Assembly (NCBI GenBank): GCA_963727055.1
Contig: CAVSEN010000003.1
Location: 85,810-149,809 of the forward strand
DNA from: an uncultured Chloroflexia bacterium
GTDB taxonomy: Bacteria; Chloroflexota; Limnocylindria; Limnocylindrales; CSP1-4
Direction: 5' to 3'
DNA: 64,000 nt
The number at the start of each line of letters is the position of its first letter. Position 1 is the stretch's first letter. Shown piece by piece: positions 23,626 through 41,571 of this stretch. The notes under the pieces are model-generated. The model did not search any database and was not told the DNA's origin. It saw only the letters and a list, made by a program, of their open reading frames with translations. The position numbers were made by a program, and so were the translations under genes.

Positions 23626-24771
23626 CTACTCCCGGATCAGTGCGGCGTTGTCGGCCCGCCACCATACGCAAACCTCCTCACCCAATTCGCGCTGCGTGTC
23701 TTTCGTCCAATCCCTGGTCCCGTGCGGCCGGACGACGACCATCTCGCCCGATGCCGTGGCGACCGTGAGCCGGGTGTGATTGCCGAGGAAGGCGACGTTG
23801 ACGATCCGGCCGGCCAGCCCCGGGGGACCATCGGTCGCATCCTGTGGTCGCACGGCCAGGAACTCGGGCCGGATCATCAGCGTGGCCGGGCCCGGCTCGG
23901 CATCGCCCTGCACCTCCACCACCGCCCCGCCGACGTCGAAGACGGCCCGGTCGCCGTCGCGCCGGACGCTGCCCTCCAGGAAGTTCGTATCGCCGACGAA
24001 GTCGGCCACGAACCGATTGGCGGGCTTGTCGTAGACCTCCCGCGGTGAGCCCTGCTGGAGGACCGTGCCGTTGGACATGATCGCGATCGTCGTCGCCATC
24101 GACAGGGCCTCTTCCTGGTCGTGGGTGACGAAGACGAACGTGGTCCCGACCTGGCGGTGGATCCGGGAGAGCTCGGTCTGCATCTGCTTGCGCAGCTTCA
24201 GGTCGAGGGCCCCCAACGGCTCATCGAGGAGGAGCACCGCCGGCCGCTTGGCCAGCGCCCGGGCCAGTGCGACGCGCTGTTGCTGGCCGCCGGACATCTG
24301 CGCCGGCAGGCGACCGGCGAGCCCGCTCAGGCCCACCAGCGCCAGGTACTCGTCGGTGCGGCTGGCCACATCCGCCTTCGACAGCTTCTCCATGCGCAGC
24401 CCGAAGGCCACGTTCTGGGCGACCGTCATGTGCGGGAAGAGGGCGTAGTTCTGGAAGACCGTGTTGACGTTGCGCTTGTGGGGCGGCAGGTCGTTGACCG
24501 TCCGGCCCTCGATCAGGAGGTCGCCCGAGCTGAGCGGGATGAACCCGCCGATCAGGTTGAGGGTCGTGGTCTTGCCGCAGCCCGACGGGCCAAGCAGGCA
24601 GAAGAACTCGCCCGGCCGGATGACCATCGAGACGTCATCCAGGGCGACCGCCTCGCCATAGCGCTTGGTGGCATGGCGGAGCTCGATTGCGGGGGTCGCG
24701 TCAGCCAAGTCGGGATCCGCTGACCATCGGGAACGACGCGCCGCGAAGCATGATGCGTCCCTCTTGTGCAA
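23626..24771 (-). CDS. ABC transporter ATP-binding protein (PotA-like)
   Basis: GPSGCGKTT, LSGGQQQRVALARAL and a TOBE C-terminus are present. The listed start is a TTG. A more likely start is the internal TTG giving MADATPAIELRHATKRYG (~24708). Confidence 0.85.
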   Translation of the reverse strand: MHKRDASCFAARRSRWSADPDLADATPAIELRHATKRYGEAVALDDVSMVIRPGEFFCLLGPSGCGKTTTLNLIGGFIPLSSGDLLIEGRTVNDLPPHKRNVNTVFQNYALFPHMTVAQNVAFGLRMEKLSKADVASRTDEYLALVGLSGLAGRLPAQMSGGQQQRVALARALAKRPAVLLLDEPLGALDLKLRKQMQTELSRIHRQVGTTFVFVTHDQEEALSMATTIAIMSNGTVLQQGSPREVYDKPANRFVADFVGDTNFLEGSVRRDGDRAVFDVGGAVVEVQGDAEPGPATLMIRPEFLAVRPQDATDGPPGLAGRIVNVAFLGNHTRLTVATASGEMVVVRPHGTRDWTKDTQRELGEEVCVWWRADNAALIRE

Positions 24772-24780
24772 CCGTTTGCC
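24764..24780. promoter_or_regulatory. LacI-type operator candidate TTGTGCAACCGTTTGCC
   Basis: Imperfect palindrome GCAACCGTTTGC in the divergent region between the PotA-like operon and paralog A. It matches sites at 28546, 37028 and 41556. Confidence 0.5.
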
Positions 24781-24846
24781 CGATGCTAGCGTGCGACCTA
24801 TGGCCCGTCAATATCGTGACCTTCGGCACGGGCGGAGCGGGCCTCG

Positions 24847-27445
24847 ATGAGCGTCACCCGGCTGGCCACGACCATCGACCTCGAGCCGGCCAGGAACATC
24901 GCCGAGGACGAGCTCGGCGCGCGGTTCCATTCCGCGTATCGACCTGCGCTCGGGCGTCTTCCGGCCGGCCGGCAGGTCTTCCATGGCGTCCCGTTCGATC
25001 TCGGTCCGGGCGCTGGTCAGCGACGCTGGATCCTCGTCGAACGGCCGATCACGCTCGACCTCGGCGGCCGGCCGGCCCGCCACCTCGTCGTCGCCCACCT
25101 GTGCGACACCTGGCGTGACGATCACGGCAACCGGCCGGCCGGCCTGGCCGTCGGCCACGTCGTCCCGGTCGGCGAACGCCTGGCCCGGTACACGATCGTC
25201 GACCGCTCCGGAGCGCGCACCGAGCGGCTGATCCGGCGCCGGTTCGAGGTCAACGACGGGATCCTCGGCTGGGGCTCGGGAGCGTTCCGGGCGGTGGCCC
25301 ACCTCGACAACGAGCCGCTCGACTGGCGCGGTCCGCACCCGGCCCAGGGCGCCGGTCGATACGCGCCGGCCGGCCAGTCGGGCACGCTCACGATCATGCC
25401 CGGCTCGTTCGGCACGGGCCAGGTCGGGATGACCGATTTCGTGCCCAGCCCGACCGACGACCTCCTGCTCTGGCTCCACGCGATCGAGCTCCCGCCCGGC
25501 TCCGAGCCCGTCGAGCTCGTGCTGGAACCGCTGAGCGCCGGCCGCGCCGGCAGCGACCTGATCGTGGCCGGCGTGACCCTGTTCAACGGCTCGGCCGATC
25601 CGCTGGCCCGCGGGCCGCGCTTCCAGGTCCGGGTCGACGGCCCGCCCGGCGCCAGGCTCGAGGTCGACCTGGGCACGGTGATCCGGAGCCGTCCCTCGCC
25701 GGCCCGCGCCGAGGTCGGCTCAGCACGTGGGGCCGAGCCGGCTCGGGTCTCCGGCTGGGGCACTCCACGGGCCGACCCGGATGCCCCGGCCGCTGGGTCG
25801 TCGCTGGTCGACCTGTCGATCGCGCCCGATGCCGTCCTCGCCCTCGACCGATCGCCGATCGCCGGTCGCGACCTGCTCGCCGGCGTGCCCCGCCTCGATC
25901 CCACGGGGCGCTGGTCGATCGAGGTCCTGCCCCCGGCCGACGTGCCGGTCACGATCGAGATCGTCGAGCCGGCGACCGGTGAGCGGGTGCCCGGCCGGGT
26001 CCGGTTCACGGCGGCCGACGGCCGCTACCTGCCGCCGGCCGGCCATCGTGACGAGGTCAATCCGGCGTTCTTCGAGGACACCGGCGGCGACCTCGTCCTG
26101 GGCTCGGCGACCTATGCCTACGTTCCCGGTCGGTTCGAGATCGACCTGCCGGTCGGGGCGGTCGAGGTCGAGGTCGTGGGCGGGTTCGACCGCCGGCCGC
26201 ATCGTGCCCGGCTGGCGATCGAGCCCGGGACGCGCCGAGCTCGTGCTGCCCCTCGAGCGGACGATCGAGCTGCACAGCGGGCGCTGGGTGACCGCCGACA
26301 GCCACGTCCACTTCCTGTCGCCGTCCACGGCGCTCCTCCAGGCTGCGGCCGAGGATGTCGACCTGGTCAACCTGCTGGCCGCCCAGTGGGGCGACCTGTT
26401 CACCAACGTGACCGACCTGCCCTGGGGCGCGATCGCCGACCCGGCCGGCCGCCGGATCGTGGTGCCCGGCACCGAGAACCGCCAGAACATGCTGGGCCAC
26501 CTCGCCCTCCTCGGCGCCCATCGGCCGACGACGCCGCTGGCCAGCGGCGGACCGCCCGAGGGCCGCCTGGGCGGTCCGCTGAGCGTCCTCCTCGCCGACT
26601 GGGCCGACCGCTGCCGGGCCGCCGGAGGTCTCGTCGTGGCCGCCCACTTCCCGCTGCCCTACGCCGAGATCGCGGCCGACATCCTGACCGGCCGGATCGA
26701 CGCAATCGAGACCCAGGCCCTGGCACCCGGCCTCGACGACCCGGCCGTCGTCGAGTGGTACCGCTACCTCAACCTCGGCGAGCGGTTGCCGGTCGTGGCC
26801 GGCACCGACAAGATGTCGGCCGAGGTGCCGATCGGCGCGGTCCGCACCTATACCCATTTGCGCTCCGACGAGCCGCTGACGTTCGCGGGCTGGGCAGCGG
26901 CCGTCCGGGCCGGCCGGACGTTCGTGTCGTCGGGCCCGATCCTCGAGCTGGCCGTTGACGGCCACGAGCCGGGCGCCGTCGTTGCGTTGCCCGGCCCGGG
27001 CCGGCTCGAGGTGACCGTCCGGGCCCGGGCCGCCCAGCCGCTGATCACCGACCTGGAGCTGGTCGTCAACGGGCGGATCGTGGCGGCCAGCCAGGCGGCG
27101 GCCGGCGTTGCCGAGCTCGGCCTGGACGAGTCGGTCGAGCTCCCGGCCGGGGCCTGGATCGCGGCCCGTTCCCGGAGCGGTGACCAGGTCCATTCGGCGT
27201 TCGCAACCTCGATGGCCGCCCATACCTCGCCGGTCTACGTCGAGGTCCGCGACCGGCCACTCAGGCCACCGGCCGACGACGCGGCCGTCGTCGAACAGGT
27301 GATCCTCGGCGCCCGGACCTGGGTCGCCGAGCTGGCCGCCGTGGCCGATCCGGCCAACCGGGCCCGGATGATCGCCTTCTTCGACGCCGCCCTCAAGGCG
27401 CTCGAGGACCGGCTGGCCGGGACCCGCCCCGCCCGCGCGCCCTAG
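24847..27445 (+). CDS. Uncharacterised ~865-aa protein, paralog A. It has an N-terminal beta-rich region of unknown function plus a C-terminal PHP/amidohydrolase-like metal-dependent hydrolase domain. There is one apparent frameshift near 26237.
   Basis: C-terminal domain motifs: WVTADSHVHFLSP, GTENRQNMLGHLALLG, AAHFPLPYAEIAAD, GTDKMS. Frame 1 (24847..~26235) and frame 2 (~26237..27445) are both protein-like and collinear with the paralog at 37101. Confidence 0.7.
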
Positions 27446-28575
27446 GGGGCCTTGACCGCCCGCAGGGTGCGGGTGCTCTCGCGCACGATCAGCTCGGGCG
27501 GCAGGAGTGCCGCCTCGGGCCGCGCGCCGTCCTGGATCGCCCGGATCAGGGATGCCGCGGCGAGCCGGCCCATCTCGCCCGACGGGGTGGCGACCGTGGT
27601 CAACCGGGGATTGGCGATCGCCGCAAAGGGGATCCCGTCGAAGCCCACGATCGCGACGTCCTCGGGCACCCGGACCCGGACCTTGCGCAGGGCGTCCATC
27701 AGGGCCAGGGCCAGCTTGTCGTCGTAGCACACGAGGGCCTCGGGCAGGTCGGCGGCAATCGTCGCAGCGAGCTCGCCGGGCGTGCGCCAGGTGTCCCCGT
27801 CGGCCGCGAAGACGCGCAGTGGCGCCCGGACGCCGCGAGCTCGGAGGGTCGAGCCGACCGCCTCGGCGCGGACCTTGTTCGTCGCCCCTCCGCCGCCCTC
27901 GACCCAGGCGATCCGCCGGTAGCCGTTGTCGACGAGGTAGTTCACGGCGGCCCGCAGGCCGCTCGCATCGTCGGTCAGGATGACGCCCGGGGGCAGCGTC
28001 CCTTCGCGGCGGGGGAGGCTGCCGTGGTCGGGCTGGACGATGATCAGGCGGTCCGGGTCGACCCGTTCGCGCGCCTCGCGCGGCGATATGGCGCTCGACA
28101 CGATCGCCACGCCATCGGTGCCGTGCTCGGCGAAGATCTTGAGGGCCAGCCGCTCGCGGACCGGCTCGTTCTCGCCGGCGACCATCATCACGCAGTAGCC
28201 GCTCCGGCGGGCCTCCTCCTCGAAGCCCGAGGCGACCTGGCCGTGGACCGGGTCGCGCAGGTCGGGAATGAGCAGGCCGAGGGTCAGGGTGTGGCGCATC
28301 CGCAGGCTGCGGGCGGCGGCATTGGGAACGTAATCGAGCTCGGCCGCCGCGGCCTTGACCGACAGCCGGGTGGCGAGGCTGATCCGCGGATCATCGGCGA
28401 GGCCCCGCGATGCGGTGGACCCGGAGACGTTCGCCGCCCGAGCCACGTCCTTGAGCAGGACGCGACGGCGCGGCGACGGCGAGGCCCCGTTGGTCACCGT
28501 GGGCCCGCTCGCACCGGATCGACCTCCGCTAAGGCAATCGATCAGGGGCAACCGATTGCGCATCGACCGTAGCAT
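27442..28575 (-). CDS. LacI-family transcriptional regulator
   Basis: HTH RRRVLLKDVARAANVSGSTASRGL plus a periplasmic-binding-like sugar-binding domain. The start is uncertain (ATG at 28575, or GTG near 28497). Its stop overlaps the paralog A stop (CTAG). An operator-like site sits in its own 5' region. Confidence 0.85.
   Translation of the reverse strand: MLRSMRNRLPLIDCLSGGRSGASGPTVTNGASPSPRRRVLLKDVARAANVSGSTASRGLADDPRISLATRLSVKAAAAELDYVPNAAARSLRMRHTLTLGLLIPDLRDPVHGQVASGFEEEARRSGYCVMMVAGENEPVRERLALKIFAEHGTDGVAIVSSAISPREARERVDPDRLIIVQPDHGSLPRREGTLPPGVILTDDASGLRAAVNYLVDNGYRRIAWVEGGGGATNKVRAEAVGSTLRARGVRAPLRVFAADGDTWRTPGELAATIAADLPEALVCYDDKLALALMDALRKVRVRVPEDVAIVGFDGIPFAAIANPRLTTVATPSGEMGRLAAASLIRAIQDGARPEAALLPPELIVRESTRTLRAVKAP
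28546..28562. promoter_or_regulatory. LacI-type operator candidate GGCAACCGATTGCGCA, nested within a GCAATCG-N12-CGATTGC inverted repeat
   Basis: The core GCAACCGATTGC is identical to the site at 37033-37044. It lies at the 5' end of, or just upstream of, the LacI gene, suggesting autoregulation. Confidence 0.5.
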
Positions 28576-28676
28576 CGGCTCTCCGGGCCGTCAATCCGGG
28601 CGTGGCCCGGGGCCTCGCTGATAGCCCGGGCTGTGCCCCGGGCTGGTTGCCCGGCTGGGGTTGCGGCTCGCGGCAC

Positions 28677-28754
28677 CGGCTCGTTTGTTTGGCTGGTGGC
28701 CTTGGCTCGTTTGTTCGGATCGTGGCCTTGGCTCGTTTGTTTGGATCGCGGACG
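28677..28754. repeat. Three tandem ~26-bp direct repeats (GGCTCGTTTGTT(T/C)GG(C/A)T(G/C)GTGGCCTT)
   Basis: Read directly from the sequence. They are locally AT-richer than the surrounding DNA and lie in the 590-bp non-coding region upstream of the LacI gene. Confidence 0.6.
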
Positions 28755-29158: not shown

Positions 29159-29998
29159 CTAACCCAGCAGGTCGACCAGCACCTCACGCAAGCCAGAGGC
29201 GACCGCGAACGGATCGGGCAGCTCCCAGTGGACCGGGCTGTACAGCTCGTTGTCCCACCAGCCGTCGAAGCCGGTCGAGCGGACCGCGGCGACCCATTCC
29301 CGCAGCGGGATCGAGCCGTCGCCGGGCCATACGCAGCGGCTCAGCTGGTCGGGTCCGCCCGCGCCGGGCGTGCCCAGCGAATCGCCGAGGTCGACGCCGA
29401 AGATCAGGCGCGCGTCGAGCCGGGCGACCGCGTCGGGCGTCACGCCGGTCTGCCACAGGTGCCAGAAGTCGAGCACCAGGCCCACGTTATCCGCCCCGCA
29501 CGCCTCGACCGCCTCGACGGCCTCGGCCAGGTCGCCCAGCGGGGTCCACGCGATCGGCTCGAGGTAATAGCGGATCCCGTCGGACGCACCGAGGTGGGCC
29601 ACCGAGCGCAGGCCATCGGCCGTGGCCCGGATCCGGTCGGCCCTCGAGAGCGAGCCGGGGCCCGGATACGCGCCGGTGGGGTCGACCGGCCCGCTGAGCA
29701 GCTGCACGTACGAGGCGCCGACGTCGACCGCCAGCTCGGTCAGCGCCTCGGCCTCCGCGAGCATCGCCGCCCGGTCGGCCGGTCGCCAGCGTTCGACGTC
29801 GGCCAGGGCCCCCAGGTTCACCGGCTCGAGGCCGGCCAGCGCCTCGCGCAGCCCCGCGACCCCGTGGCCCCGGGCGAGGTAGCGGCGGAGGTGCTCCTCG
29901 CGCAGGAAGATTCCGTCCCAGCCGGTCTCGCGGGCCAGCCGGACCTGGTGCAGGGCCGGCAGGTGCATCGTCGAATTCGAGTTGTAGACCAGCCGCAT
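29159..29998 (-). CDS. Sugar phosphate isomerase/epimerase TIM-barrel protein (IolE-like inosose dehydratase candidate)
   Basis: Xylose-isomerase-like TIM family (LVLDFWHLW, GSIPLREW). It is the last gene of the iol-type operon. Confidence 0.7.
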   Translation of the reverse strand: MRLVYNSNSTMHLPALHQVRLARETGWDGIFLREEHLRRYLARGHGVAGLREALAGLEPVNLGALADVERWRPADRAAMLAEAEALTELAVDVGASYVQLLSGPVDPTGAYPGPGSLSRADRIRATADGLRSVAHLGASDGIRYYLEPIAWTPLGDLAEAVEAVEACGADNVGLVLDFWHLWQTGVTPDAVARLDARLIFGVDLGDSLGTPGAGGPDQLSRCVWPGDGSIPLREWVAAVRSTGFDGWWDNELYSPVHWELPDPFAVASGLREVLVDLLG

Positions 29999-30020
29999 CG
30001 GTGCCTCCGTCCTGTCCGGG

Positions 30021-30884
30021 CTAGGCGGAGAATGCGCCGAGGAGCGCGATGCCGACGACGACGAGGGCGATCCCGACCACCTGCCGGGGCGCGAGGCGTT
30101 CCCGGAACAGGACGAACGCGGCGATCGCCGCCATCGGCGCGAACATCGAGGCCAGGACGGACGTGACCGCGATGTCCTGGCGGCTGCCGATCGAGAACGA
30201 GGCGAGCCCGACCACCTCGACGACGCCGGTCAGGACGATGAACGGCACGGCCCGCCGCGGGACGCGTGCCCGGCCGGTGGCCAGGATCGGCAGGCCGACG
30301 ACCAGGACGCCGGCCAGCCGCCCGGGCAGGACGACCCATGCCGGCGGCAGGCTGGCGCTGACCTGGCCGGTCACGAACAGCCCGCTGCCGAGGGCCAGGG
30401 CGGCACACAGGGCCAGGCCGGCTGCCCGGAGCGACTGGCCGCGGCTGATCGGAACGCCCTCCTCGAGCTCATGGCCGCCGCTGGTCGCCGCCAGCACCAC
30501 GCCCACGGCGACGATCGCCAGCACCGGCCCGGATCCGGGCGCGAGCGCCTGGCCGGCCAGCACCGAGATGATTGCGGCGATCGCCCCCTCGGTCGAGCCG
30601 ATCGTCGACACGATCCCGACCGCGCCGATCCGGTAGGCGGCGTAGGCCAGGAGCAGGCCGACCACGTTCAGCCCGCCGGCCAGCACCGAGCCGGCGATGG
30701 TCGAGGCCGGCACCGGCGGCAGTGGCGTGACGAGCAGGGCGACCGGCAGGAGCAGGAGCGACCCGATCAGCATCACGCCGGCGACCGCCGGAACCGCGCC
30801 CGCGATCCGGCTGGAGCGCGCCGAGGAGAGGGTCGAGATGGCGTAGGCGACCGCGGTCACGGCGCCCGCCAGGATCGGCGGCAT
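30021..30884 (-). CDS. DMT-superfamily (EamA-like) transporter
   Basis: Ten predicted TM helices with an Ala/Gly/Leu/Val-rich EamA-like duplication. Confidence 0.75.
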   Translation of the reverse strand: MPPILAGAVTAVAYAISTLSSARSSRIAGAVPAVAGVMLIGSLLLLPVALLVTPLPPVPASTIAGSVLAGGLNVVGLLLAYAAYRIGAVGIVSTIGSTEGAIAAIISVLAGQALAPGSGPVLAIVAVGVVLAATSGGHELEEGVPISRGQSLRAAGLALCAALALGSGLFVTGQVSASLPPAWVVLPGRLAGVLVVGLPILATGRARVPRRAVPFIVLTGVVEVVGLASFSIGSRQDIAVTSVLASMFAPMAAIAAFVLFRERLAPRQVVGIALVVVGIALLGAFSA

Positions 30885-30908
30885 CGAGGACGGTCGTCCG
30901 GCGCTGGT

Positions 30909-31907
30909 TCAATCGACCGGCGCGAGCCGGAGGGGTTGCGCGAACCGGTGCGCCGTGTCGCGGCAGCGCTCGAATGCGGGCAGGGCGACGGCCCGGGCGA
31001 GCCGCTCGGCCTCGGCCGGATCCGGGCTGAGGGCGGGGCCCCAGATACCGCGCCCGGCCAGAAAGCCCGACGCTCCGGCCCGCCCCGCCAGCCGGACCTG
31101 GTCGACGAACTCGTCGATCCCCACGCCCGCCCCGAGGAGCACCCATGGCGTTCCGGCACAGGCGCCGGCCAGCGCCCGGCAGGCCTCGCTCGCCCGGTCC
31201 TCGCCGGCGCTCGCCAGGCCAGGCAGCGGGAACGGCACCTTGAGCAGGTCGGCGCCCAGCGGCTGGAGGCGGGCGACGGCACCAATGACGAGCGCCTCGT
31301 AGGCCAGCGCGTAGTCCGCCGCCGACTCGCTCGACCACTGGTAGGCAACCGGCTCGATCACCAGCGGCAGGCCGTAGCCATGGCAGACCTGGGCGACGCC
31401 GGCAACGAGCGCATCCTGCCGGGCGGCCGATGGCTCGTGGTCGACCCGGTAGGGGAGCAGCAGCTTGCAGGCATCGGCGTGGTGGCTCGGCGCGATGGCT
31501 TCCCAGTCCGCGAGAAGGGTGGTCAGCCGGCCGTCGCCGACGACCTCGTAGCCCTGCGCCTCGATGGGCATGATCAGGCCGATCGAGGGCGGCACGGCCC
31601 CGCTGTCGAAGGCCGCCTGGCCGAGCTCGGCGTCGAGCATCAGGGTCGATGCAGCCGGCGCCAGGACCCTGACCAGGGCGGCCTTCAGGTCCCCCAGCTC
31701 GGCCGTCGTCAGGCCGGCCAGGCCCTGCCGCTCGAGGTAGACCCGCAGGCTGTCGCGGTGGTCGATCGCCAGGCCGGCGATGATCCCATCAGGACCGGCC
31801 AGGCGCAGGAGGCGCTGGCGTCGATCGCGGTCGAGGCCCGCCTGCCGCCCGTGTGCGCGCTCAAGGTCCCGTTCCAGGTGGTCGGCCGGCTCCGTTCCGT
31901 GACGGGT
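30909..31907 (-). CDS. Class I aldolase of the LacD/tagatose-bisphosphate or DUF2090 family (IolJ-type 2-deoxy-5-keto-gluconate-6-P aldolase candidate)
   Basis: LLRLAGPDGIIAGLAIDHRDSL is LacD-like. The GTG start overlaps the iolB stop (GTGA). Confidence 0.65.
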   Translation of the reverse strand, partial: TRHGTEPADHLERDLERAHGRQAGLDRDRRQRLLRLAGPDGIIAGLAIDHRDSLRVYLERQGLAGLTTAELGDLKAALVRVLAPAASTLMLDAELGQAAFDSGAVPPSIGLIMPIEAQGYEVVGDGRLTTLLADWEAIAPSHHADACKLLLPYRVDHEPSAARQDALVAGVAQVCHGYGLPLVIEPVAYQWSSESAADYALAYEALVIGAVARLQPLGADLLKVPFPLPGLASAGEDRASEACRALAGACAGTPWVLLGAGVGIDEFVDQVRLAGRAGASGFLAGRGIWGPALSPDPAEAERLARAVALPAFERCRDTAHRFAQPLRLAPVD

Positions 31908-32833
31908 CACAGGCTGACGAGCGGCAGTCGCGGATCGGGCTTCATCGCCGGCCATTCGGCCCGGATCCAGGCGAAATCGGGATCGTCGCTGTTGGCCATC
32001 GTCCGACGGTCGCCGGCCAGCGCGTTCAGGAAGTAGGCGTCGTAGCCGGGCATGGCGATGAACGGGTGGTAGCCCTGGTCGACGATCAGCAGGTCGCCGT
32101 GCCGGACCGGTATCAGCAGGTCGCGCGACCCGTCACGGTGATAGATCCGCTGGATCGCCGACGCCTCCGGCCGGGCGAACTGGTAGAAGTACGTCTCCTC
32201 GAGGACCGCCTCGCGCGGCGGGTCATCCACGTCGTGCTTGTGGGGCGGCCAGCCAGACCAGCCGCCGGCCGGCGTGAGCACCTCGCAGATCAGCAACCGG
32301 TCGGCCGGGAAGTCGGGCAGCATGATGTTGTTGACCTGCCGGGTGCAGTTGCCGGCGCCCCGGATCTCGATCGCGACGTCGGACGGCCGGACCACGATCG
32401 GCTGGGTGGCGATCCCCGGCCGGCCCGTCAGGGGCGCCTGGGCCAGGGCGACCACGGCGCGCCGCCCGGGCAGCGGCCGGCCGACGATCCGGGCCGTCGT
32501 GCCGGCCGGGATGTACGCGCTCCAGGGCAGGCCCTCGAAGACCGAGGCGCGGCCCGGCAGGGCCAGGCTCGGCCGGTCGTCGAAGGCGACCTCGATGCCG
32601 CCACCGGAGATCGTGACCAGGGCCGCCTCCTGGTCGGGTGCATCGAGCAGGGCAACCTCGCCCTCGGCCAGCGAGAACGAGCGGAACGACAGGTAGCGCC
32701 AGCCCGCCCGGGCCGGGTTGGTGGCCACGATCCCGTCGGCCCCGGGTCGGACATGGAGCAGCTCCGGGGGCAGGCGAGACGGCAGCTTGGCAGCATGGAT
32801 CTCGACGCCCGACTCGTCGCGGGTGGTCGTCAC
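31907..32833 (-). CDS. iolB: 5-deoxy-glucuronate isomerase
   Basis: IolB/KduI cupin family (GGWSGWPPHKHD). The GTG start at 32833 has an AGGAGG RBS 6 nt upstream and overlaps the iolC stop. Confidence 0.8.
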   Translation of the reverse strand: MTTTRDESGVEIHAAKLPSRLPPELLHVRPGADGIVATNPARAGWRYLSFRSFSLAEGEVALLDAPDQEAALVTISGGGIEVAFDDRPSLALPGRASVFEGLPWSAYIPAGTTARIVGRPLPGRRAVVALAQAPLTGRPGIATQPIVVRPSDVAIEIRGAGNCTRQVNNIMLPDFPADRLLICEVLTPAGGWSGWPPHKHDVDDPPREAVLEETYFYQFARPEASAIQRIYHRDGSRDLLIPVRHGDLLIVDQGYHPFIAMPGYDAYFLNALAGDRRTMANSDDPDFAWIRAEWPAMKPDPRLPLVSL

Positions 32834-33804
32834 GGCAGGGCCTCCTGGGCTTGGCTCACGAGCGATCCGCCCGGTCCACGGGCAAGCAGCTCGTCGATCT
32901 CGGCGGGCGCGGGCATCGCCGCGCTGCACATCAGGCGGGAAGCAACGATGGCCCCGGCGGCGTTGCCCCGGGCGATCGCGGCCAGCGGATCGAGGCCGCG
33001 CAGCAAGCCCGCGGCGACGGCCGCCGTGAGCGCGTCGCCGGCGCCCAGCCCGCAGGTCACCTCGACCGGGATCCCCGGCAGCGAGGCGCGCCGGCCGCCG
33101 GCCAGCAACGAGACACCGTCCTGGCCGTGCTTGAGGATCACGAGCCGGGACCCTTCCGCCATGGCCGCCGGGGTGAGGCCGGCGGCGGCGAACTCGGCGT
33201 CGCTGCCGATCAGGAGGTCGCTCAGCTCGGCGGCCCGCTCGATCAAGGCCGGGTACTCGCCGGGGTCCGCCCACAGGGTCGGCCGCCAGTCCAGGTCGAG
33301 GATCGTCCACGACGCGGCCCGCCGATCGCCGGCCGCCAGCCGGTCGGCGAGGATCGCGAGGGTCGTCGAACGGGCCGGCTCGGTCGCCAGGAGGGCGCCC
33401 GAGACGATCACCAGGCGGGCCTTCGACAGCTCGTCGAGGGGCGCCTCGCCCGGCGCCAGGAGCGTGTCGGGGGCCGGTGCCAGGCGATAGAACGTGACCG
33501 GGAAGTGGTCCGGTGGCCAGGCCTCGAAGAAGGCGACCTGCGTCCGCAGCGCGGGCCGGGTCGTCAGGCTGGCGACCGAGATCCCTTCCGCGACGAGGGC
33601 CGTCCGGACGTGCTCACCGTGGCCATCGTCGCCCACGCTCGACACGACGGCCGTGACGATGCCCAGGCGGGCCAGGCCGGTCCCGATGTTGCCCGCGAAG
33701 CCACCCACGGCGCGCCGGAACGAGGCTGCCTCGGCCAGCGACGTCCGGGGCTCGGACGGCGTGAAGTCGACCCCGATCCGCCCGACGACGAAGGCCTCGA
33801 TCAT
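32830..33804 (-). CDS. iolC: 5-dehydro-2-deoxygluconokinase (PfkB family)
   Basis: MIEAFVVGRIGVDF start. It has the PfkB GG motif (GGFAGN) and a C-terminal DTxGAGD-like motif (GLGAGDALTAA). Confidence 0.8.
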   Translation of the reverse strand: MIEAFVVGRIGVDFTPSEPRTSLAEAASFRRAVGGFAGNIGTGLARLGIVTAVVSSVGDDGHGEHVRTALVAEGISVASLTTRPALRTQVAFFEAWPPDHFPVTFYRLAPAPDTLLAPGEAPLDELSKARLVIVSGALLATEPARSTTLAILADRLAAGDRRAASWTILDLDWRPTLWADPGEYPALIERAAELSDLLIGSDAEFAAAGLTPAAMAEGSRLVILKHGQDGVSLLAGGRRASLPGIPVEVTCGLGAGDALTAAVAAGLLRGLDPLAAIARGNAAGAIVASRLMCSAAMPAPAEIDELLARGPGGSLVSQAQEALP

Positions 33805-33818
33805 CGCCGGTCGGGGCC

Positions 33819-35059
33819 TCAGTCGAGGTGCTTCTGGACGGCGTCCCGGAAGGTCAGCGCGCAGGCCCGGGCCTCGTCCGCGCCGTCCCGCATCCGGAGG
33901 CCGAACGGGGCCAGGTTCGCGTCGCGGACGCCGATTCCGATGCTGATCGAGCGATCGAGCAGGGCATCGGTCTGGGGCAGCAGCCCGGTCCGGTAGTCGC
34001 CGTGGGCGTGGCCGGGGACGTCGCAGTCGAACGGGCAGCCCTTGCCGGTGACCGTGCGTCGCTCGAGCAGGTGGTTCATCCGGCTGTAGACATGCCAGCC
34101 CGATTCGGACAGGGTGATCGAACCGACCTCCCGGGCGACCTTGTGGGCGATGTCGGCCGTCGGCAGGACCACGACCAGGTGGGTGGCCAGGTCGCCCTCC
34201 GGATCGGGCAGGTTGCGGAAGCCGATCGCCGGCTCCTCCTCGAGGAACTCCTGGACGATCGCCTTGTTGGCCCGCAGGTGCGAGGTGATCAGGTCGAGCT
34301 TGCGGAACTGGGCCAGGAGGACGGCCCCGGACAGCTCGGTCATCCGGAAGTTCATGCCCAGGAATGGGCGCGGCGCGTACTTCGATTCGAGCCGGTCCGG
34401 GGCATGGCCCTGGTCGTGCATCGCGAAGCAGCGCTCGTAGAGGGCCTCGTCGTCGGTCACGATCATCCCGCCGTCGCCGCAGGTGATCGTCTTGTACTCG
34501 TTGAAGCTGTACACCCCGGCGCTGCCGATCCCGCCGACGCCCTGGCCGTGGTAGGACGCGCCGAACGCCTGGGCGCAATCCTCGACGAGCGGGAGTCCAT
34601 GCTTGTCGGCGATCGCCTTGAGTTCGTCCAGCCGGGCCGGCCCGCCGAGCATGTGGACGACCAGGATCGCCGCCGTGCGCGGGGTGATCCGGGCCTCGAC
34701 GTCGGCCGGGTCGAGGTCGAACGAATCGTCGACCTCGGCCAGGACCGGCGTGGCACCGGCGTAGACGATCGCCGAAATCGAGGCGACGAACGTGAAGCCG
34801 GGCACGATCACCTCGTCGCCCGCCCCGATGCCCAGGCCGAGCAGGGCGATCCACAGGCCGGCCGACCCGCCGCCATGCAGCCCGAGGCCGAAGCGGACGC
34901 CGGCCAGCCGGGCGATCTCGCCCTCGAGATCCGGTGGACCTTGGCCCCGAAGGCGGGGTTGTCCGAGGGGCCGTACCGGCTGAGGAAGCCGCTCGACATC
35001 ACCTCGAGCACCTCGGCCGTCTCCTCGGCCCCGATGAGTTCGACTCCGGGTCCTGGCAT
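33819..35059 (-). CDS. DegT/DnrJ/EryC1/StsC-family PLP-dependent aminotransferase, with one apparent frameshift near 34932
   Basis: The N-terminus MPGPGVELIGAEETAEVLEVMSSGFLSRYGPSDNPAFGAKV (ORF 34808..35059) joins DLEGEIARLAGVRFGLGLHGGGSAGLWIAL...SFNEYKTITCGDGGMIVT (the long ORF) after a -1 shift at 'caccggatctcgag' (GGG->GG). Confidence 0.75.
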
Positions 35060-35131
35060 GTGGCGTTCTCCTGCTAAGCGACGGTTGCCGGCCAGGCCGG
35101 CGGCTGGGTGGGGCGGCCCCGGATGGGGCCA

Positions 35132-37018
35132 TCAGTGGAGGTCGGTTCGCTGCCGGTCGCGGGCCAGCTCGTAGGCGGCCCGGGCGGCCCGCACGCCGGC
35201 CTGTCCGCTGGCCGCCGGGACGGGGACGTCCCACCAGGTCTCGAAGCCGGTGACCCGCTTCTCGGGCTCGGTCGGCACGAGGATCACCGTGACCCGGTCG
35301 GCGGCCCGGGCCTGGGCCAGCGCGTCCTGGAGCTCGCCCGGCGTCCGGGCGAGCAGCCCCAGGGCCCCCATCGCCTCGGCGTGGGCCCGGAAGTCGATCG
35401 GCACGTATGGTCCGCTGAGGCGCCGGCTGGCCGGATCGCGGAAGCGCAGCTCGTTGCCGAAGTCGGGCACCCCGACCGAGCGCTGGAGGGCCAGGATGCA
35501 CTGGAAGCCGTGGTTGTCGAGGACGACGATCGTGAGCTTCAGGCCCTCGGCCACGGCCGTCACGATCTCCGAGTTCATCATCAGGTACGAGCCATCGCCG
35601 ACCATCACGACGACCTCGCGTTCGGGCTCCGCCAGCCGGACGCCCAGCCCGGCGGCGATCTCGTAGCCCATGCACGAGAAGCCGTACTCGACGTGGTAGG
35701 CCTTCGGGTCCTCGACCCGCCACAGGCGGAGCAGGTCGCCGGGCAGGCTGCCGGCGGCGCAGATCACGGTGGCTCGGGCGCCGACGGCATCATTGACCAG
35801 GCCGATCACCTCGGCCTGGCCCAGGTCGCCCGGGTCGCCGCTCAGGGTGCGCAGCTTCGTGACGGCGGCGTCCCACTCCTCCTTCAGGTCGCCCGCCTTC
35901 CGGCGGTAGGCGTCATCGGTGCCCGGGTAGCCGGCCGCGGCCAGCCCGGCGCCCAGGGCCCGGAGGGCCTCCCGCGCGTCGGCGACCACCGGCACGGCCC
36001 GCAGCTTGTGGGCATCGAACGAGCCGATGTTGATCCCGATGAAGGCGACATCCGGGTCCTGGAACGTCGTGTTGGAGGCGGTCACGAAGTCGCCCAGCCG
36101 GGTGCCGACGCACACGACCAGGTCCGCGGTGCGGGCCAGCCGGTTGGCGGCCAGGCCACCGTTCGTGCCGGCCGGGCCCATGTTCATCGGGTGGTCCCAG
36201 GCCAGGGCGCCCTTGCCGGCCTGGGTCTCGACCACCGGGATTCCGAAGCGGGTCGCGAGGTCGGCCAGCTCGTCGGTGGCCTCGGAGTAGATCGTGCCCC
36301 CGCCGCTGACGATCAGCGGCGCCCGGGCGGCGGAGATCAGGCGGACCGCGTCGGCCAGGTCGGCCGCGGCCGGCAACGGCCGGCGGACGCGCCAGGTGCG
36401 CCGGTCGAAGAAGGCCAGCGGCCAGTCGAAGGCCTCGGCCTGGACATCCTCGGGCAGCGAGATCGTCGCTGCACCGGTCTCGGCCGGATCGGTCAGGACC
36501 CGAAAGGCGGCCGGCAGCGAGCCGAGCAGCTGCTCCGGCCGTGAGATCCGGTCGAAGTAGCGGGACACCGGCCGGAACGCGTCGTTCACGCTGACGTCCC
36601 GCTCGATCGGGTGCTCGACCTGCTGGAGCACCGGGTCGGGCGCCCGGTTGGCGAAGTAGTCGCTCGGGAAGAGCAGGACCGGGATCCGGTTGACGGTCGC
36701 CACTGCCGCCCCGGTCACCATGTTCAACGCCCCGGGGCCGACCGACGACGTGCAGGCGAAGGCCTGGAGGCGGTTGAGGTGCTTGGCAAAGGCCGTCGCA
36801 ATGTGGACCTGGGCCTGCTCGTTCTGGGAGCGGTAGAAGGGCATCGCCTCGGCCGCCCCGAGCTCCTCCAGGGCCTGGCCCAGCCCGGCGACGTTGCCGT
36901 GCCCGAAGATGCCCCAGAAGCCGGCGATGAATCGGTGCTCTCGGCCATCGCGCTCGACGTACTGGGCGGCGCAGAAGCGAACGACGGCCTGGCCCACGGT
37001 CAGCCGGACAGTGTCCAT
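35132..37018 (-). CDS. iolD: 3D-(3,5/4)-trihydroxycyclohexane-1,2-dione acylhydrolase (TPP-dependent)
   Basis: MDTVRLTVGQAVVRF start. It shows the acetolactate-synthase-like ThDP fold (GDGSYLMMNSE). Confidence 0.85.
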   Translation of the reverse strand: MDTVRLTVGQAVVRFCAAQYVERDGREHRFIAGFWGIFGHGNVAGLGQALEELGAAEAMPFYRSQNEQAQVHIATAFAKHLNRLQAFACTSSVGPGALNMVTGAAVATVNRIPVLLFPSDYFANRAPDPVLQQVEHPIERDVSVNDAFRPVSRYFDRISRPEQLLGSLPAAFRVLTDPAETGAATISLPEDVQAEAFDWPLAFFDRRTWRVRRPLPAAADLADAVRLISAARAPLIVSGGGTIYSEATDELADLATRFGIPVVETQAGKGALAWDHPMNMGPAGTNGGLAANRLARTADLVVCVGTRLGDFVTASNTTFQDPDVAFIGINIGSFDAHKLRAVPVVADAREALRALGAGLAAAGYPGTDDAYRRKAGDLKEEWDAAVTKLRTLSGDPGDLGQAEVIGLVNDAVGARATVICAAGSLPGDLLRLWRVEDPKAYHVEYGFSCMGYEIAAGLGVRLAEPEREVVVMVGDGSYLMMNSEIVTAVAEGLKLTIVVLDNHGFQCILALQRSVGVPDFGNELRFRDPASRRLSGPYVPIDFRAHAEAMGALGLLARTPGELQDALAQARAADRVTVILVPTEPEKRVTGFETWWDVPVPAASGQAGVRAARAAYELARDRQRTDLH

Positions 37019-37027
37019 CGAGCCTCC

Positions 37028-37045
37028 TTGCGCAACCGATTGCAA
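37028..37045. promoter_or_regulatory. LacI-type operator candidate TTGCGCAACCGATTGCAA
   Basis: It lies in the 83-nt divergent region between iolD (start 37018) and paralog B (start 37101). Confidence 0.55.
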
Positions 37046-37100
37046 CGAAGGTATCATCGCCGCTCACTCCACGTCAACATCGGTCGGAGGGGTCGGCGTG

Positions 37101-39710
37101 ATGACCATCGGGCGCTCCGCTGTGACCTCGCCTGCGGCCCGCCCGATCGACCTCTCGGCGAGCTGGAACGCCTCGGACGCCGAGCTCGGAGCCCGCCTCC
37201 ATCCGCTCTACGGCTCGGCGCTCGGCCGCTTGCCCGAGGGCGACCAGGCGTTCCGCGGACTCCCGTTCCGGCTCGGCAGCCGGGCGGTCGGCGCGCGCTG
37301 GATCGCGGTCGGCGACGGCCTGACGGTCGAGCTGGGGCAGGGGAGCGGCAACGAAGGTCGGGCGAGCCACCTCGTCGTTGCCCACTTCAGCGACAGCTGG
37401 CGAGAGCCGGCCGGTGGCCGGCCGGCCGGGATGCCCGTCGGCTGGGTCCTGCCCACCGGCGAGCCGCTGGCCCGCTACGAGGTGCTGTTTGGCGCCGGGC
37501 GGAGCCAGGTGCTCAACGTCCGGCGCCGGTTCGAGATCGCCGACGGGGTCATCGGCTGGGGCTTCCTGCCGTTCGCCGCCGTCGGTCACCAGGCCGACGA
37601 GGCCCTCAGACTGGCGTGGCCCGTTTCCGCGCCAGGAGGCGGGTCGAACGGCGCCGGCCGGTCACGCCGGCGCGCTCACGATGCTGCCCGGGTCCTGGGC
37701 CGCGGGCCAGTCAGGGGCGGTCGACTACGTGCCCTCGGCCGACGACGACATCACCCTCTGGCTGCACGCCATCCCCCTCGACGACGGCCGCCTGCCGGCG
37801 GCGATCCGGCTCGTCCCGCTGGGGTCGGGGCGGCCGGGCACGGAGGTGGTGCTGGCCGGGTTGACCGCGTTCGAAGGCACGGCCGACCCGCTCGTCCTGG
37901 CCGGGCGACGGGCGTTCCGCGTCGGCGGCAGCCGGGCCTGGCCGGCGATCGACCTGGGCGTCGGGATCCGCGCTCGGCCTGCCGTCCCGGCGCCGCGCCG
38001 AGCAGAGCCGGAGGGGCCCCTCGGCTGGGGACGCGAGGCCGAGCTCGAGCCCGATCGGCGTGCTCGACACGATCGTCGATGCCGCCCTGGCAGCCGACGC
38101 CCGGCTGACGTTCGGGGGCTGGTCGGTAGCCGCCACCGAGCTCGGCAACGAGGTCGTGACCAGCCCGGATGGGACGATCTCGATCCGGGCCCTGCCCAAC
38201 CCCGTGATCCGCGTCGACGTGCGCGTCTCGGCCGGCGGGGAGCCCACCCCGAGCCGGGTCCGGTTCGTTGCCGGCGACGGCCGCTACCTGCCGCCGGTCG
38301 GCCATCGCGACGAGGTCAACCCGGGCATCTTCGAGGACAGCGGTGCAGGCCTGATCCTGGGCGCCGACACGTTCGCCTACGTCCCGGGCGAGTTCCGGGT
38401 CGACCTGCCGGTCGGCGCCGGTCGAGGTCGAGGTGGTCAAGGGCTTCGACCATCGCCCGGTCCGGATGGCGATCGAGGTCGGGCCGCAGGCGCGTGAGCT
38501 CGTCGATCGACCTCGACCGCCCGATCGACCTGCGCCCGGCCGGCTGGCTGACGTCCGACTCCCACGTCCACTACATCTCCCCGTCGACCGCCCTGCTCCA
38601 GGCGGCCGCCGAGGACGTGGCCTTCGTCCACCTCCTGGCGACCCAGCTGGGCGACCATTTCACCAACATCCCCGACCTCAGCTGGGGTTCGCAGGTCGAG
38701 CCGGGCGGCCGGCACGCGGTCATCGTCGGCACCGAGAACCGGCAGAACGTGCTCGGGCACCTCGCCCTCCTCGGCGCCCGTCGGCCGGTGGCGCCGTACG
38801 CCTCCGGCGGGGCGCCCGAGGGCCGGATCGGGCAGCCGGTCAGCGAGCTGCTCGCCGACTGGGCCGCCGAGTGCCACGCCCAGGGCGGCCTGGTGGTCGC
38901 GGCCCATTTCCCCCTGCCGTTCGCCGAGATCGCGGCCGACATCGTCGCCGGCGAGATTGACGCGGTCGAGATGCAGTGCTTCGCGCCCGGTCTCGACAAC
39001 CCGTCGATCCTCGAGTGGTACCGGTTCCTCAACTGCGGCTACCGCCTGCCGGTCCTGGGGGGCACCGACAAGATGTCGGCCGAGGTGCCGGTCGGTGCCG
39101 TCCGGACCTACGCCCGGCTCGACCCCGACGTCGCCGCCGACCTTCGAGGCCTGGTCGGCCGCCGTCCGCGCGGGCCGGACCTTCGCGACCTCGGGGCCGG
39201 TCCTCGAGCTGCTCGTCGACGGCCACGAGCCGGGTGACGTGCTGTCGCTGCCGGCCTCCGGCGGCCGCCTCGCGGTCGACGTCCGGGCCAGGGCGGCCCA
39301 GCCCGTCATCCAGGCGATCGAGCTGGTCGTCAACGGCCGGGTCGTCGCCCGCGAGGCGGCCGGCGCGGAGACCGGCGAGCTGCGCCTGGCGGCGAACGTC
39401 ACGATCGAGGCCGGCTCATGGATCGCGGCCCGGGCCCTGCAGCGATCGCCAGGTCTACTCGGCGTTCCGCTCGAGCATGGCCGCCCACACCTCGCCGGTC
39501 TACGTCGACGTCCTCGACCACCCGCTCCTCGTCGCCGCCGATGCGCAGGCGATCCTGGCCGTGATCGACGGGACCGCGCGCTGGCTCGAGACGATGGCGG
39601 CGATCGACGATCCCGCCGTCCGGGCCCGGATGGTGGCCCGGATCGAGGCAAGCGGCCGCCGCCTGCGCGGCCGGCTCCGGCAACAGGCAGAGGGAGGCGT
39701 CCTGAGATGA
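37101..39710 (+). pseudogene. Uncharacterised large hydrolase-like protein, paralog B (~45% identical to paralog A by eye), interrupted by ~6 frameshifts
   Basis: GGAGG-GTG-ATG start. It is collinear with paralog A across frames. Frameshifts lie near 37607, 38055, 38415, 38496, 39130 and 39440. The C-terminal motifs are conserved (WLTSDSHVHYISP, GTENRQNVLGHLALLG, AAHFPLPFAEIAAD, GTDKMS). Confidence 0.7.
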
Positions 39711-40579
39711 AGATCGCGCTCGATCCATACATGCTCCGCGAGCGGCCCTTCGGCGAGGTCTGCCGGATCGCGGCGGACATCGGCTACGACTCGATCGAGC
39801 TCTCGCCGCGGCCCGACTTCATCCCCTTCTTCGTCCACCCGCGGGCCGACCGGGCCAAGGTCGCCGAGTTCCGGACCGCGCTCCGCGAGACGGGCCTCGA
39901 GCTGGCCTCGATCCTGCCCCTCTACCGCTGGTCGAGCCCGGACGAGGACGAGCGCCAGGCGGCGGTCCGCTACTGGAAGCGGGCGATCGAGCTGTGCGTC
40001 GACGTCGGCTGCAGCACGATGAACTCGGAGTTCAACGGCCGGCCCGAGCTGGCCGCCCAGAGCGAGGCCCAGTTCTGGCGCTCGATGGAGGAGCTCCTGC
40101 CGATCTTCGAGCGGGAAGGGATCCGGCTCAACCTGGAGGCCCACCCGGACGACTTCATCGAGCGCAACCAGGAGGCCGTCGACCTCGTCCGGGGGATCGA
40201 CTCGGACCTCGTCCGCTACGTGTTCTGCGCGCCGCACACGTACTACCTGGGCGACGACATCGCGGCGATGATCGCCTACGCCGCGCCGGTCCTCGCCCAG
40301 GTCCACATCGCCGACGTGCTCAACCACCGGGCGTCCTCCGGCCTGCGCTACATCGTCAACCCGCCCGGGTCGCCGGCCCGGGTCCACCAGCACCTCGACA
40401 TCGGCCAGGGCGAGGTCGATTTCGAGGCCTGCTTCGGCGCGCTGGCGGCAGTCGACTTCGACGGAATCCTGACCAGCTGCGTCTTCGCCTGGGAGGAGCG
40501 TGCCGTGGAGTCGTCACGGTTCATGTTCGAGACAATCCAGGGCCTGCTGGGCGGGACTAGGCGAGCAGGCCGGCAATGA
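39707..40579 (+). CDS. Sugar phosphate isomerase/epimerase (xylose-isomerase-like TIM barrel)
   Basis: MKIALDPYMLRERPFGEVCRIAADIGYDSIELSP... The ATG overlaps the paralog B stop (ATGA). Confidence 0.85.
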   Translation: MKIALDPYMLRERPFGEVCRIAADIGYDSIELSPRPDFIPFFVHPRADRAKVAEFRTALRETGLELASILPLYRWSSPDEDERQAAVRYWKRAIELCVDVGCSTMNSEFNGRPELAAQSEAQFWRSMEELLPIFEREGIRLNLEAHPDDFIERNQEAVDLVRGIDSDLVRYVFCAPHTYYLGDDIAAMIAYAAPVLAQVHIADVLNHRASSGLRYIVNPPGSPARVHQHLDIGQGEVDFEACFGALAAVDFDGILTSCVFAWEERAVESSRFMFETIQGLLGGTRRAGRQ

Positions 40580-41484
40580 ACGCGGCGGCCTCGCGCACGC
40601 CGTCGGCCTGGCTCGAATAGGGGTCCTCCTGCTCGATCGACAGCGAATCGTCGTAGCCGGCCAGCCGCAGGGCGGCGACGAACTCCCGCCACCACGCCGC
40701 CGAATGGACTCGCCCGACGGTCCGGAACAGCCACGCCCGTTCGGCCGGGGTCTCGAACGGCCGATTGTCCAGGACCCCGGCCAGGGCGACCTGGGCGGCC
40801 ACGATCTCGGTGTCCTTCATGTGCACATGCTGGACGGCCGGACCGAGCGCCGCGATCACCGCGATCGGGTCCATCTGCTGCCAGAAGAGGTGGCTGGGAT
40901 CCATGTTCGCCCCGATCCGGTCGCCCACCTCGGAGCGGAAGGCGAGGGCGTCGGGGCGTTGTAGACCAGGTGGAGGGGATGGAGCTCGAACGCGATCCGG
41001 TCGACGCCGCACTGCTCGGCGAGGCGGACCTTCTCCGTCCAGAACCGGATGCCGTCGCGTCCCAGCTCCGCCGGCCGAGGGCCAGCGCGTCGTCCGGCCA
41101 GGGATACCAGGTCCAGTTGAAGGTCGTCGCGCCGGGTCCATCACCGGGGCAGCCGGCCATCGACACGATCTTGGGGACGCCCAGCTCCTGGGCGAGGCGG
41201 AGCGTCTTGCTGATCAGCTCGGAATGGGCCGGTCCGACGACCGGATGGAGCGGCCAGGCCGAGCAGTTGAGGGCCGCGATGCGCAGGCCGCGGCGCTCGA
41301 ACGCCGCCCGGAAGCTCGTTCGCGCGGCCGCGCTGGCGAGGAGCTCATCGACGCGCAGGTGGGGTGCGCTCGACTGGCCGCCGGTGGCAATCTCGATCGA
41401 GCGAACGCCCGCCTCGGCGGCGACGTCGAGCGCCTCGTCGAACGAGTGGCTCGTCAGCGAGTCGGTGTACAGGCCGATATCCAC
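40557..41484 (-). pseudogene. Sugar phosphate isomerase/epimerase TIM-barrel protein with two frameshifts (near 41057 and 40948)
   Basis: GTG start at 41484 with an AAGGAG RBS. The reading frame passes through three frames: ...YPWPDDALALGRR / ELGRDGIRFWTEKVRLAEQCGVDRIAFELHPLHLVYNA / PDALAFRSEVGDRIGANMDPSHLFWQQMDP...HVHMKD... Confidence 0.7.
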
Positions 41485-41555
41485 GCGGGCTCCTTGCGTT
41501 CCAGGCGTGTGCGCGAGCGGAAAGCCTCCTGCCCGGGCCTGCTCATGATAGACTG

Positions 41556-41571
41556 TGCTAACGATTGCACG
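41556..41571. promoter_or_regulatory. LacI-type operator candidate GTGCTAACGATTGCAC
   Basis: It lies just downstream of a TAGACT -10-like hexamer, ~18 nt upstream of the P450 ATG, and is divergent from the TIM-barrel pseudogene. Confidence 0.4.

Follow-up and report, generated by a model that had tools for sequence, protein, structure and literature searches.

Bacterial inositol genes are controlled by at least seven non-orthologous groups of LacI-family regulators that share the name IolR, and for most of these groups the effector is unknown (PMC4052901). LacI-type IolR regulogs in RegPrecise include those of AAur_1987 in Micrococcineae, mlr1005 in Rhizobiales and Jann_1424 in Rhodobacterales (Ravcheev et al. 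2014, PMC4052901). Here we describe a candidate regulon of this kind in a 64-kb stretch of DNA (the window) from an uncultured Limnocylindrales-like member of the Chloroflexota, a host outside that survey. It is defined by four near-palindromic sites that are very probably the operators of a LacI-family repressor encoded at 27442-28497 on the minus strand. As in the IolR systems, with which it is compared by description, a local LacI repressor lies inside an inositol-catabolic (iol) cluster, the site is an even palindrome with a central CG, and several operons carry it, including that of the putatively autoregulated repressor. The regulon differs in adding a cytochrome P450, two PHP-fold hydrolases, a DegT-family aminotransferase, a PotD-type ATP-binding cassette (ABC) importer and an F420-type luciferase-like oxidoreductase (LLM), and in that the motif is missing from a second inositol-like cluster of the window, at 49133-57748. 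By this description the regulon appears to be functionally IolR-like.

Other members of the family offer partial parallels. E. coli PurR (PDB 1PNR family) is homologous to the window LacI over its full length (E 5e-27), with the hinge 'ARSL' conserved, and the core of the PurR box, GCAAACGTTTGC, is the same as the operator core found here, GCAAnCGnTTGC. PurR, however, needs a corepressor and controls biosynthesis, whereas the position of the sites at catabolic promoters suggests inducer-released repression; moreover, the window LacI scores 115 bits against a PurR equivalog cutoff of 501. The best structural-sequence matches are to RbsR and to CcpA of the CcpA/cre system, the operators of which share TGnAAnCGnTTnCA-type logic, but CcpA is a global regulator requiring HPr-Ser-P. 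IpsA of Corynebacterium and Mycobacterium, again compared by description, is also LacI-type and recognizes a palindromic motif with a central CG, and myo-inositol has been shown to release it from DNA (PMC3899939). Unlike the repressor proposed here, IpsA does not repress a catabolic cluster; its main role is to activate genes of inositol synthesis (ino1) and of the cell wall.

The core GCAAnCGnTTGC occurs in three exact copies in the window (at 24768, 28548 and 37032) and in a one-mismatch copy at 41557, all found where an earlier note on this DNA had placed them. Operator 1 (24766..24781, core 24768-24779; GTGCAACCGTTTGCCC, core GCAACCGTTTGC) lies between an ABC/oxidoreductase operon on the minus strand and hydrolase paralogue A on the plus strand. 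Operator 2 (28546..28561, core 28548-28559; GGGCAACCGATTGCGC, core GCAACCGATTGC), the putative autoregulatory site, lies upstream of lacI. Operator 3 (37030..37045, core 37032-37043; GCGCAACCGATTGCAA, core GCAACCGATTGC) separates iolD (minus strand) from paralogue B (plus strand); like the first two it is given without a strand. Operator 4 (41555-41570, core 41557-41568; GTGCTAACGATTGCAC, core GCTAACGATTGC) falls in the divergent region shared by a TIM-barrel gene (minus strand) and the P450 gene (plus strand). Scored across the 64 kb with a symmetrised 16-bp weight matrix, the four reach 22.0, 20.4, 23.0 and 22.5 bits, respectively, and all of them are intergenic. The next-best position in the window, in coding sequence at 39015, scores 11.8 bits, and no fifth operator was found above that value. 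Matches with one or two mismatches at 16802, 19033, 26778 and 54992 were considered as extra operators and rejected, as all lie in coding sequence.

Chance recurrence of a short GC-rich near-palindrome would be one alternative, and lone high scores do arise in simulated sequence (maximum 22.6 bits in 100 simulations). Four such scores, however, never occurred together. Exact matches to GCAANCGNTTGC number three in the window, against a mean of 0.034 in 1,000 first-order Markov simulations, none of which reached even two; for matches with at most one mismatch, five were observed and 1.53 expected. Because the window has a G+C content of ~72%, a palindrome containing A/T is rare in it. Every copy lies in a promoter and the sites are conserved over many loci, as detailed below; these comparative data refute chance, to which we assign a negligible probability.

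The consensus of a 32-site compendium, GtGCAAnCGnTTGCaC, is an even 16-bp palindrome with a central CG in 32 of 32 sites and essentially invariant TTGC/GCAA arms. This agrees with the general form of LacI-family operators, which are palindromes of even length (16-22 nt) centred on CG (PMC4052901). Departures from the palindrome are one-sided throughout, as protein half-sites would give. The same observation bears on the idea that the palindrome works as nucleic acid, either as a 5'-terminal hairpin of the transcript or as a promoter-intrinsic element, rather than as a protein site. The palindrome does lie at or just past the predicted +1, hence at the 5' end of the mRNA, and the 12-mer could form a 4-bp stem. 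Yet the variants GCTAACGATTGC (in several loci), GGAAACGGTTGC, GCCAAC.., TCAAGC.. and GCAATCGATAGC unpair one side with no compensatory change, the central CG and both half-sites (TTGC/GCAA) do not vary, in the manner of a LacI operator, and no Rfam family matched anywhere in the window. We therefore regard a nucleic-acid function as highly improbable. At site 2, the earlier note had described the core as nested in a larger inverted repeat, GCAATCG (28535-28541) and CGATTGC (28553-28559). This 7-bp repeat is indeed present, but the regions upstream of orthologous lacI genes lack it (alignment A1); it was rejected as a part of the operator and is, as judged from that alignment, lineage-specific.

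The protein encoded by lacI has the domains of a LacI-family repressor. A LacI helix-turn-helix domain (PF00356, residues 41-85, 53.9 bits against a cutoff of 27) aligns with those of RbsR, CcpA and PurR, and Pfam also detects the effector/dimerisation domain (PF13377, 116.7 bits; PF00532, 53.3 bits). Full-length alignments to solved structures gave E values of 7.8e-33 for RbsR, 4.7e-30 for CcpA and 5e-27 for PurR. The hinge 'YVPNAAARSL' aligns with the RbsR and CcpA hinges, its leucine is invariant in ten homologues, and both the recognition helix STASR and the hinge AARSL are conserved among LacI orthologues (alignment A5). In this family the hinge leucine (Leu54 in PurR/LacI numbering) inserts into the central CG of the operator (cited in PMC3899939). 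Only sub-threshold LacI matches (RbsR, CytR, GntR and similar) were found in NCBIfam, with no equivalog cutoff reached; because its scores fall far below all of these cutoffs, the protein represents a distinct orthologous group. The longest open reading frame (ORF) reaches 28575, which the earlier note took as the start of the gene. This ATG is ruled out, as it has the conserved -35 and -10 elements of the lacI promoter on either side; the real start is therefore downstream, probably at GTG 28497.

A TAnnnT -10 hexamer precedes each operator by 2-6 bp, and at three of the sites TTGACG stands 17-18 bp ahead of the hexamer. The predicted promoter of the ABC operon (24783..24811, minus strand) has its -35 TTGACG at 24811..24806, a 17-nt spacer and its -10 TAGCAT at 24788..24783, and operator 1 begins 3 nt past the -10; it matches the consensus at 9 of 12 positions, and four orthologous regions share the block unchanged (alignment A3). 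That of lacI (28566..28594, minus strand) combines TTGACG (28594..28589) and, after 17 nt, TACGGT (28571..28566), with the operator beginning 6 nt past the -10 and the blocks conserved in A1. At iolD (37048..37077, minus strand), TTGACG (37077..37072) and TACCTT (37053..37048) are separated by 18 nt and the operator begins 4 nt past the -10; these blocks are conserved in alignment A2 and in two further loci (L088 and L083), and a ribosome-binding site (RBS), AAGGAGG, and the ATG at 37018 follow downstream. The P450 promoter and operator 4 (41546..41570, plus strand) consist of an extended -10, TGaTAGACT (41546-41554), and then the operator. Since each operator lies just past the -10, it covers the predicted transcription start; the operators would span roughly +1 to +12 of the ABC, lacI, iolD and P450 promoters, the usual layout for steric repression.

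In the mechanism we propose, which is modelled on the behaviour of LacI/PurR/CcpA-type repressors, each palindrome would be occupied by a repressor dimer, the hinge-helix leucine of which would enter the central CpG, and the bound repressor would block open-complex formation or promoter escape. The C-terminal domain would bind the pathway substrate or an intermediate, most likely a cyclitol derivative, and the repressor would then be released. The divergent genes, namely paralogue A, paralogue B with its coupled TIM-barrel gene and the TIM-barrel gene opposite the P450, would be co-repressed by the same operators. Both the binding by LacI and the direction of regulation are predictions.

We also observed that a second TAnnnT on the opposite strand shares its TA with the -10 (A-N3-TA-N3-T), at 24779-24792, 28562-28575, 37044-37057 and 41545-41554. 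Such back-to-back -10 hexamers would put divergent starts ~23 bp apart; in bacterial bidirectional promoters the starts are 7-25 bp apart (PMC10268837). Because the P450 orthologues do not all share it, we leave the bidirectional-promoter idea as a remark.

The sites are conserved upstream of orthologous genes in related loci. The closest LacI orthologues come from Chloroflexota metagenome-assembled genomes, at 70% (L001, isolate CF_46), 67% (L002, Candidatus Limnocylindrales) and 66% (L003, also Candidatus Limnocylindrales) identity, and three more loci (L161, from a 1.04-Mb contig, L162 and L163) were reached through the hydrolase family. The palindrome precedes lacI and the ABC operon in L001, and iolD, lacI and the ABC operon in L002 and L003; the lacI and ABC operators are also present in L161 and L163. 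Operator 1 is conserved, and the 12-mer of operator 2 is invariant upstream of lacI, in all five of these loci (L001-L003, L161 and L163), and operator 3 is invariant in L002 and L003 (A2) as well as in L083 and L088. In alignments A1 (lacI), A2 (iolD) and A3 (ABC), three conserved islands stand out amid diverged flanks: TTGACG, then TAnnnT 17-18 nt on, then the 12-mer another 3-6 nt on. Even beside LacI genes with 44-49% identity, GCAAnCGnTTGC is still found, and one such locus (L005) reads TTGACA-17-TACGGT-operator. L162 (Ga0376051_0001531) represents a minimal cluster, in which a TIM-barrel gene and a DegT aminotransferase gene diverge from a PHP-fold hydrolase gene, with a convergent P450 gene and no iolD/B/C/J nearby. 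It carries three operators, located at the contig edge (position 52, resembling the lacI-upstream sites), in the divergent region between aminotransferase and hydrolase (2284) and upstream of the P450 (6210).

For site 4, we fetched 80 metagenomic P450 loci. Of the 25 loci in which the P450 is at least 60% identical, 18 carry the operator 28-105 nt ahead of the P450 start, and across 17 non-redundant orthologous upstream regions it trails a TAnnnT hexamer by 2-8 nt. In three of the seven exceptions, the P450 gene lies co-directionally behind other cluster genes (paralogue B and its TIM-barrel gene in L086; the run from ABC to alcohol dehydrogenase genes in L090 and L105). Loci with a P450 of at least 60% identity contain 7.9 exact motifs per 100 kb, and none was found in the 55 loci with a P450 of 56% identity or less (351 kb). 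The motif is thus not similarly frequent in coding DNA, given these 351 kb around distant P450 homologues and the lack of any other strong match in the window.

A different protein could in principle bind these sites, namely another LacI paralogue or a dimeric regulator encoded elsewhere, with the adjacent lacI being merely a target. The 64 kb visible here belong to a contig of more than 1 Mb, and GCAAnCGnTTGC-like cores are common at LacI-family operators of unrelated loci (for example, L044 and L024). However, the motif accompanies the LacI orthologue in every locus that has one (L001-L006, L161 and L163), an operator lies immediately upstream of lacI in six genomes, the recognition helix is conserved together with the motif, and the 64-kb window contains no second LacI-family gene. 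We consider this alternative very unlikely. Two points nevertheless weigh against assigning the sites to the encoded repressor and its promoters. Our motif and LacI-gene scans cover 64 kb only, so a LacI paralogue of the same specificity, and further regulon members, may exist elsewhere. In addition, a consensus promoter scan called the promoter at site 1 only; those at sites 2-4 were read from the conserved blocks, and the lacI promoter was missed because its -10 is weak. Collectively, the enrichment, the footprinting and the LacI domains support the earlier proposal that LacI-type operators define a local, putatively autoregulated regulon.

The operators may also control the genes on the other side of each divergent region, as the earlier note had assumed for both hydrolase paralogues. 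The geometry described above is defined for the opposite-strand promoters, and the case for co-regulation comes from the shared divergent regions of 80-140 bp. The start-to-start distances are ~80 bp for iolD and paralogue B, ~140 bp for the ABC operon and paralogue A, and ~105 bp for the TIM-barrel and P450 genes; with the divergent starts so close, the partner promoters must overlap the operator region. Divergence of paralogue B from iolD is kept in 5 of 5 loci (the window, L002, L003, L083 and L088) and that of paralogue A from the ABC operon in 4 of 4 (the window, L001, L161 and L163). Plus-strand hexamers flank the operator at site 1 (TTGTGC-17-TAGCGT) and site 3 (TTGCGC-18-TATCAT). Because these hexamers overlap the RBS and -10 of the partner gene, their conservation is not independent evidence. 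The operators might instead control only the ABC operon, lacI, the iolD operon and the P450, with the divergent paralogues and TIM-barrel genes transcribed independently. The conserved -35/-10/operator geometry on one strand per site would fit such an arrangement, as would the retention of the ABC site in L002 and L003, which have no divergent paralogue. It is harder to reconcile with start distances that leave no promoter room outside the operator region, with the maintained divergence of both gene pairs, with the fusion of the P450 to the operon of paralogue B and its TIM-barrel gene in L086, and with L162, in which the paralogue diverges from the aminotransferase with an operator between them. 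We consider independent transcription unlikely, and co-regulation of the paralogues by the same operators likely.

The earlier note had called this wiring unusually wide. With ~20 genes, four operators and 4-7 transcription units, it instead falls at the upper end of a normal local LacI regulon: among 1,288 LacI-family regulons surveyed, 93% have 20 genes or fewer and 72% of the regulators are autoregulated (PMC4052901). As far as sequence can tell, the circuit is a real, ordinary local repressor circuit of the LacI/GalR class.

The gene map of the window was built from GC3 frame analysis (G+C at third codon positions) together with Pfam and NCBIfam searches, and Pfam bore out the gene context that had been noted around the four sites. 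The ABC/oxidoreductase operon (17603..24708, minus strand; Pfam, NCBIfam) has the same gene order in L161 and L163. It encodes an ABC ATPase with a TOBE_2 domain (23626-24708, from a predicted TTG start), a PotD-like substrate-binding protein with a twin-arginine translocation (TAT) signal (22417-23616), two ABC permeases (21475-22392 and 20622-21482), the F420-type LLM (19598-20596), a zinc-dependent alcohol dehydrogenase (18556-~19560) with IolM as its best NCBIfam match, and a TIM-barrel protein (17603-18553), all on the minus strand. A strong RBS, AAGAGGGA, right after operator 1 precedes a 16-codon ORF with its ATG at 24751 (24701-24751, minus strand), the stop of which overlaps the in-frame TTG 24708, the best-fitting start of the ABC ATPase. 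This short upstream ORF varies in length and sequence (33 codons, ending TTGA, in L002 and L003; 10 codons in L001); it may reflect translational coupling, or it may be an indel artefact at the true ATPase start.

The iol-type operon (29159..37018, minus strand) was mapped by Pfam and by tblastn of L002 orthologues onto the window. Reading from operator 3, all on the minus strand, it comprises IolD (35132-37018), the DegT-family aminotransferase (33828-35059, with one frame change), IolC/PfkB (~32863-33804), IolB/KduI (~31916-32998), a DeoC-type aldolase (30909-~31800), an EamA transporter (30021-30884) and an IolE-like TIM-barrel protein (29159-29998). A non-coding spacer of 560 nt (28600-29158) separates the end of this operon from the lacI promoter and contains a repeat at 28678-28748 (26-bp unit x 2.7, GGCTCGTTTGTTTGGATCGTGGCCTT, 91% matches). 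The corresponding spacer is ~60-190 nt in L001-L003, and the long form is also found on a Logan contig with the same LacI. In relatives, genes for the N- and C-terminal subunits of a split transketolase come after lacI (L001 2266-4124, L002 11037-12838, L161 12609-16432), to which L161 adds a GFO/IDH/MocA gene and a second KduI/IolB gene. None of these genes occupies that place in the window, and lacI converges directly on paralogue A.

Paralogue A (24847..27445, plus strand) has N-terminal beta-sandwich domains and a C-terminal PHP-fold metallohydrolase domain of the CehA/McbA type. Both paralogues score above the NF038032 cutoff and have the PHP-type fold and metal ligands of CehA/McbA proteins, with no Pfam domain and no solved relative. 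Paralogue B (37101-39710, plus strand; traced by tblastn) runs through frames 3,1,2,3,1,2,3 and is coupled by a stop/start overlap to a TIM-barrel gene (ATG 39707-40579, plus strand; Pfam), an order kept in L083, L086 and L088. The TIM-barrel gene divergent from the P450 (40557..41484, minus strand) was identified from Pfam matches on two fragments, the frame plot and the translation, has a predicted GTG start at 41484 with RBS AAGGAG, and also adjoins the P450 in L081-L085 and L094. The P450 gene (41589..42782, plus strand; RBS GGGAG, ATG 41589) was recognized by Pfam and by the 80 related loci, and no NCBIfam equivalog was reached. Downstream of it, on the minus strand at 42799-45704, lie genes for a GyrI-like protein and for a protein of 714 aa that matched no family; both also adjoin the P450 in L081 (76% and 82% identity), and no operator is associated with them.

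Several of these genes are interrupted by frame changes: one in paralogue A (near 26183-26232), six in paralogue B, one in the aminotransferase and two in the TIM-barrel gene beside the P450. The reading frames of iolD and the ABC operon are intact, unlike those of their frameshifted neighbours. An independent 8-kb contig with an identical LacI encodes an intact paralogue A of 865 aa; most of the frameshifts in the window are therefore probably assembly indels, although those in paralogue B may be genuine decay.

In function, the regulon is predicted to be a local catabolic one, consisting of an iolE/D/B/C/J trunk and a conserved module of PHP-fold metallohydrolase, DegT aminotransferase, TIM-barrel proteins and P450. 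The operon behind operator 3 encodes the inositol-catabolism trunk, with IolD, IolB, IolC, the DeoC-type aldolase and the IolE-like TIM barrel; no IolG or IolA gene was found in the operator-controlled units of the window. The second cluster, at 49133-57748, is a classical inositol-like one, with two GFO/IDH/MocA genes (49133 and 52009), a TIM-barrel gene, a DeoC gene and a ribose-type (Peripla_BP_4-type) ABC importer, and the window scan found no operator motif in it. Just upstream of this cluster are an AraC-family gene (45726-46673) and a gene for an old yellow enzyme-type flavoprotein (46815-49010).

The hydrolase-aminotransferase-TIM-P450 module accompanies the operator even where the iol trunk is missing (L162), which suggests that these four components are the conserved core of the regulon; from the same observation it follows that the substrate is probably a modified cyclitol. 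An aminated substrate was one candidate, since MosB is a scyllo-inosose aminotransferase (PMC6668481). The aminotransferase encoded here, however, matches the Kdo8N transaminase (5k8b) with an E value of 2.5e-81 and inosose aminotransferases with values of 1e-45 to 1e-36. This greater closeness to the Kdo8N enzyme than to scyllo-inosose aminotransferases makes the cyclitol assignment tentative; an inosamine-type substrate, suggested by the activity of MosB and by the PotD-like substrate-binding protein, was kept only as one option. Tentatively, the operators may mark an undescribed pathway of soil Chloroflexota in which a modified cyclitol (amino-, O-methyl-, phospho- or otherwise conjugated) would be converted to an intermediate of the iolE/D/B/C/J trunk, with LacI as the specific sensor. 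The proposed hydrolase of this pathway would be the cytoplasmic ~865-aa PHP-fold (CehA/McbA-type) metallohydrolase, and its TIM-barrel proteins are xylose-isomerase-like.

The logic of operator and repressor described here is textbook, and in itself the circuit adds little to what is known. It is of practical value in providing, for an uncultured Limnocylindrales-like lineage of the Chloroflexota, a high-confidence regulon validated by comparison and, through guilt by association, in tying genes without an assigned role, those for two large hydrolases, a P450, a DegT aminotransferase, a PotD-type ABC importer and an F420-type oxidoreductase to an inositol-catabolic trunk. The regulon thereby offers a testable hypothesis of a new degradation route for cyclitol derivatives, along with a candidate pair of sensor and promoter for a compound of this kind.

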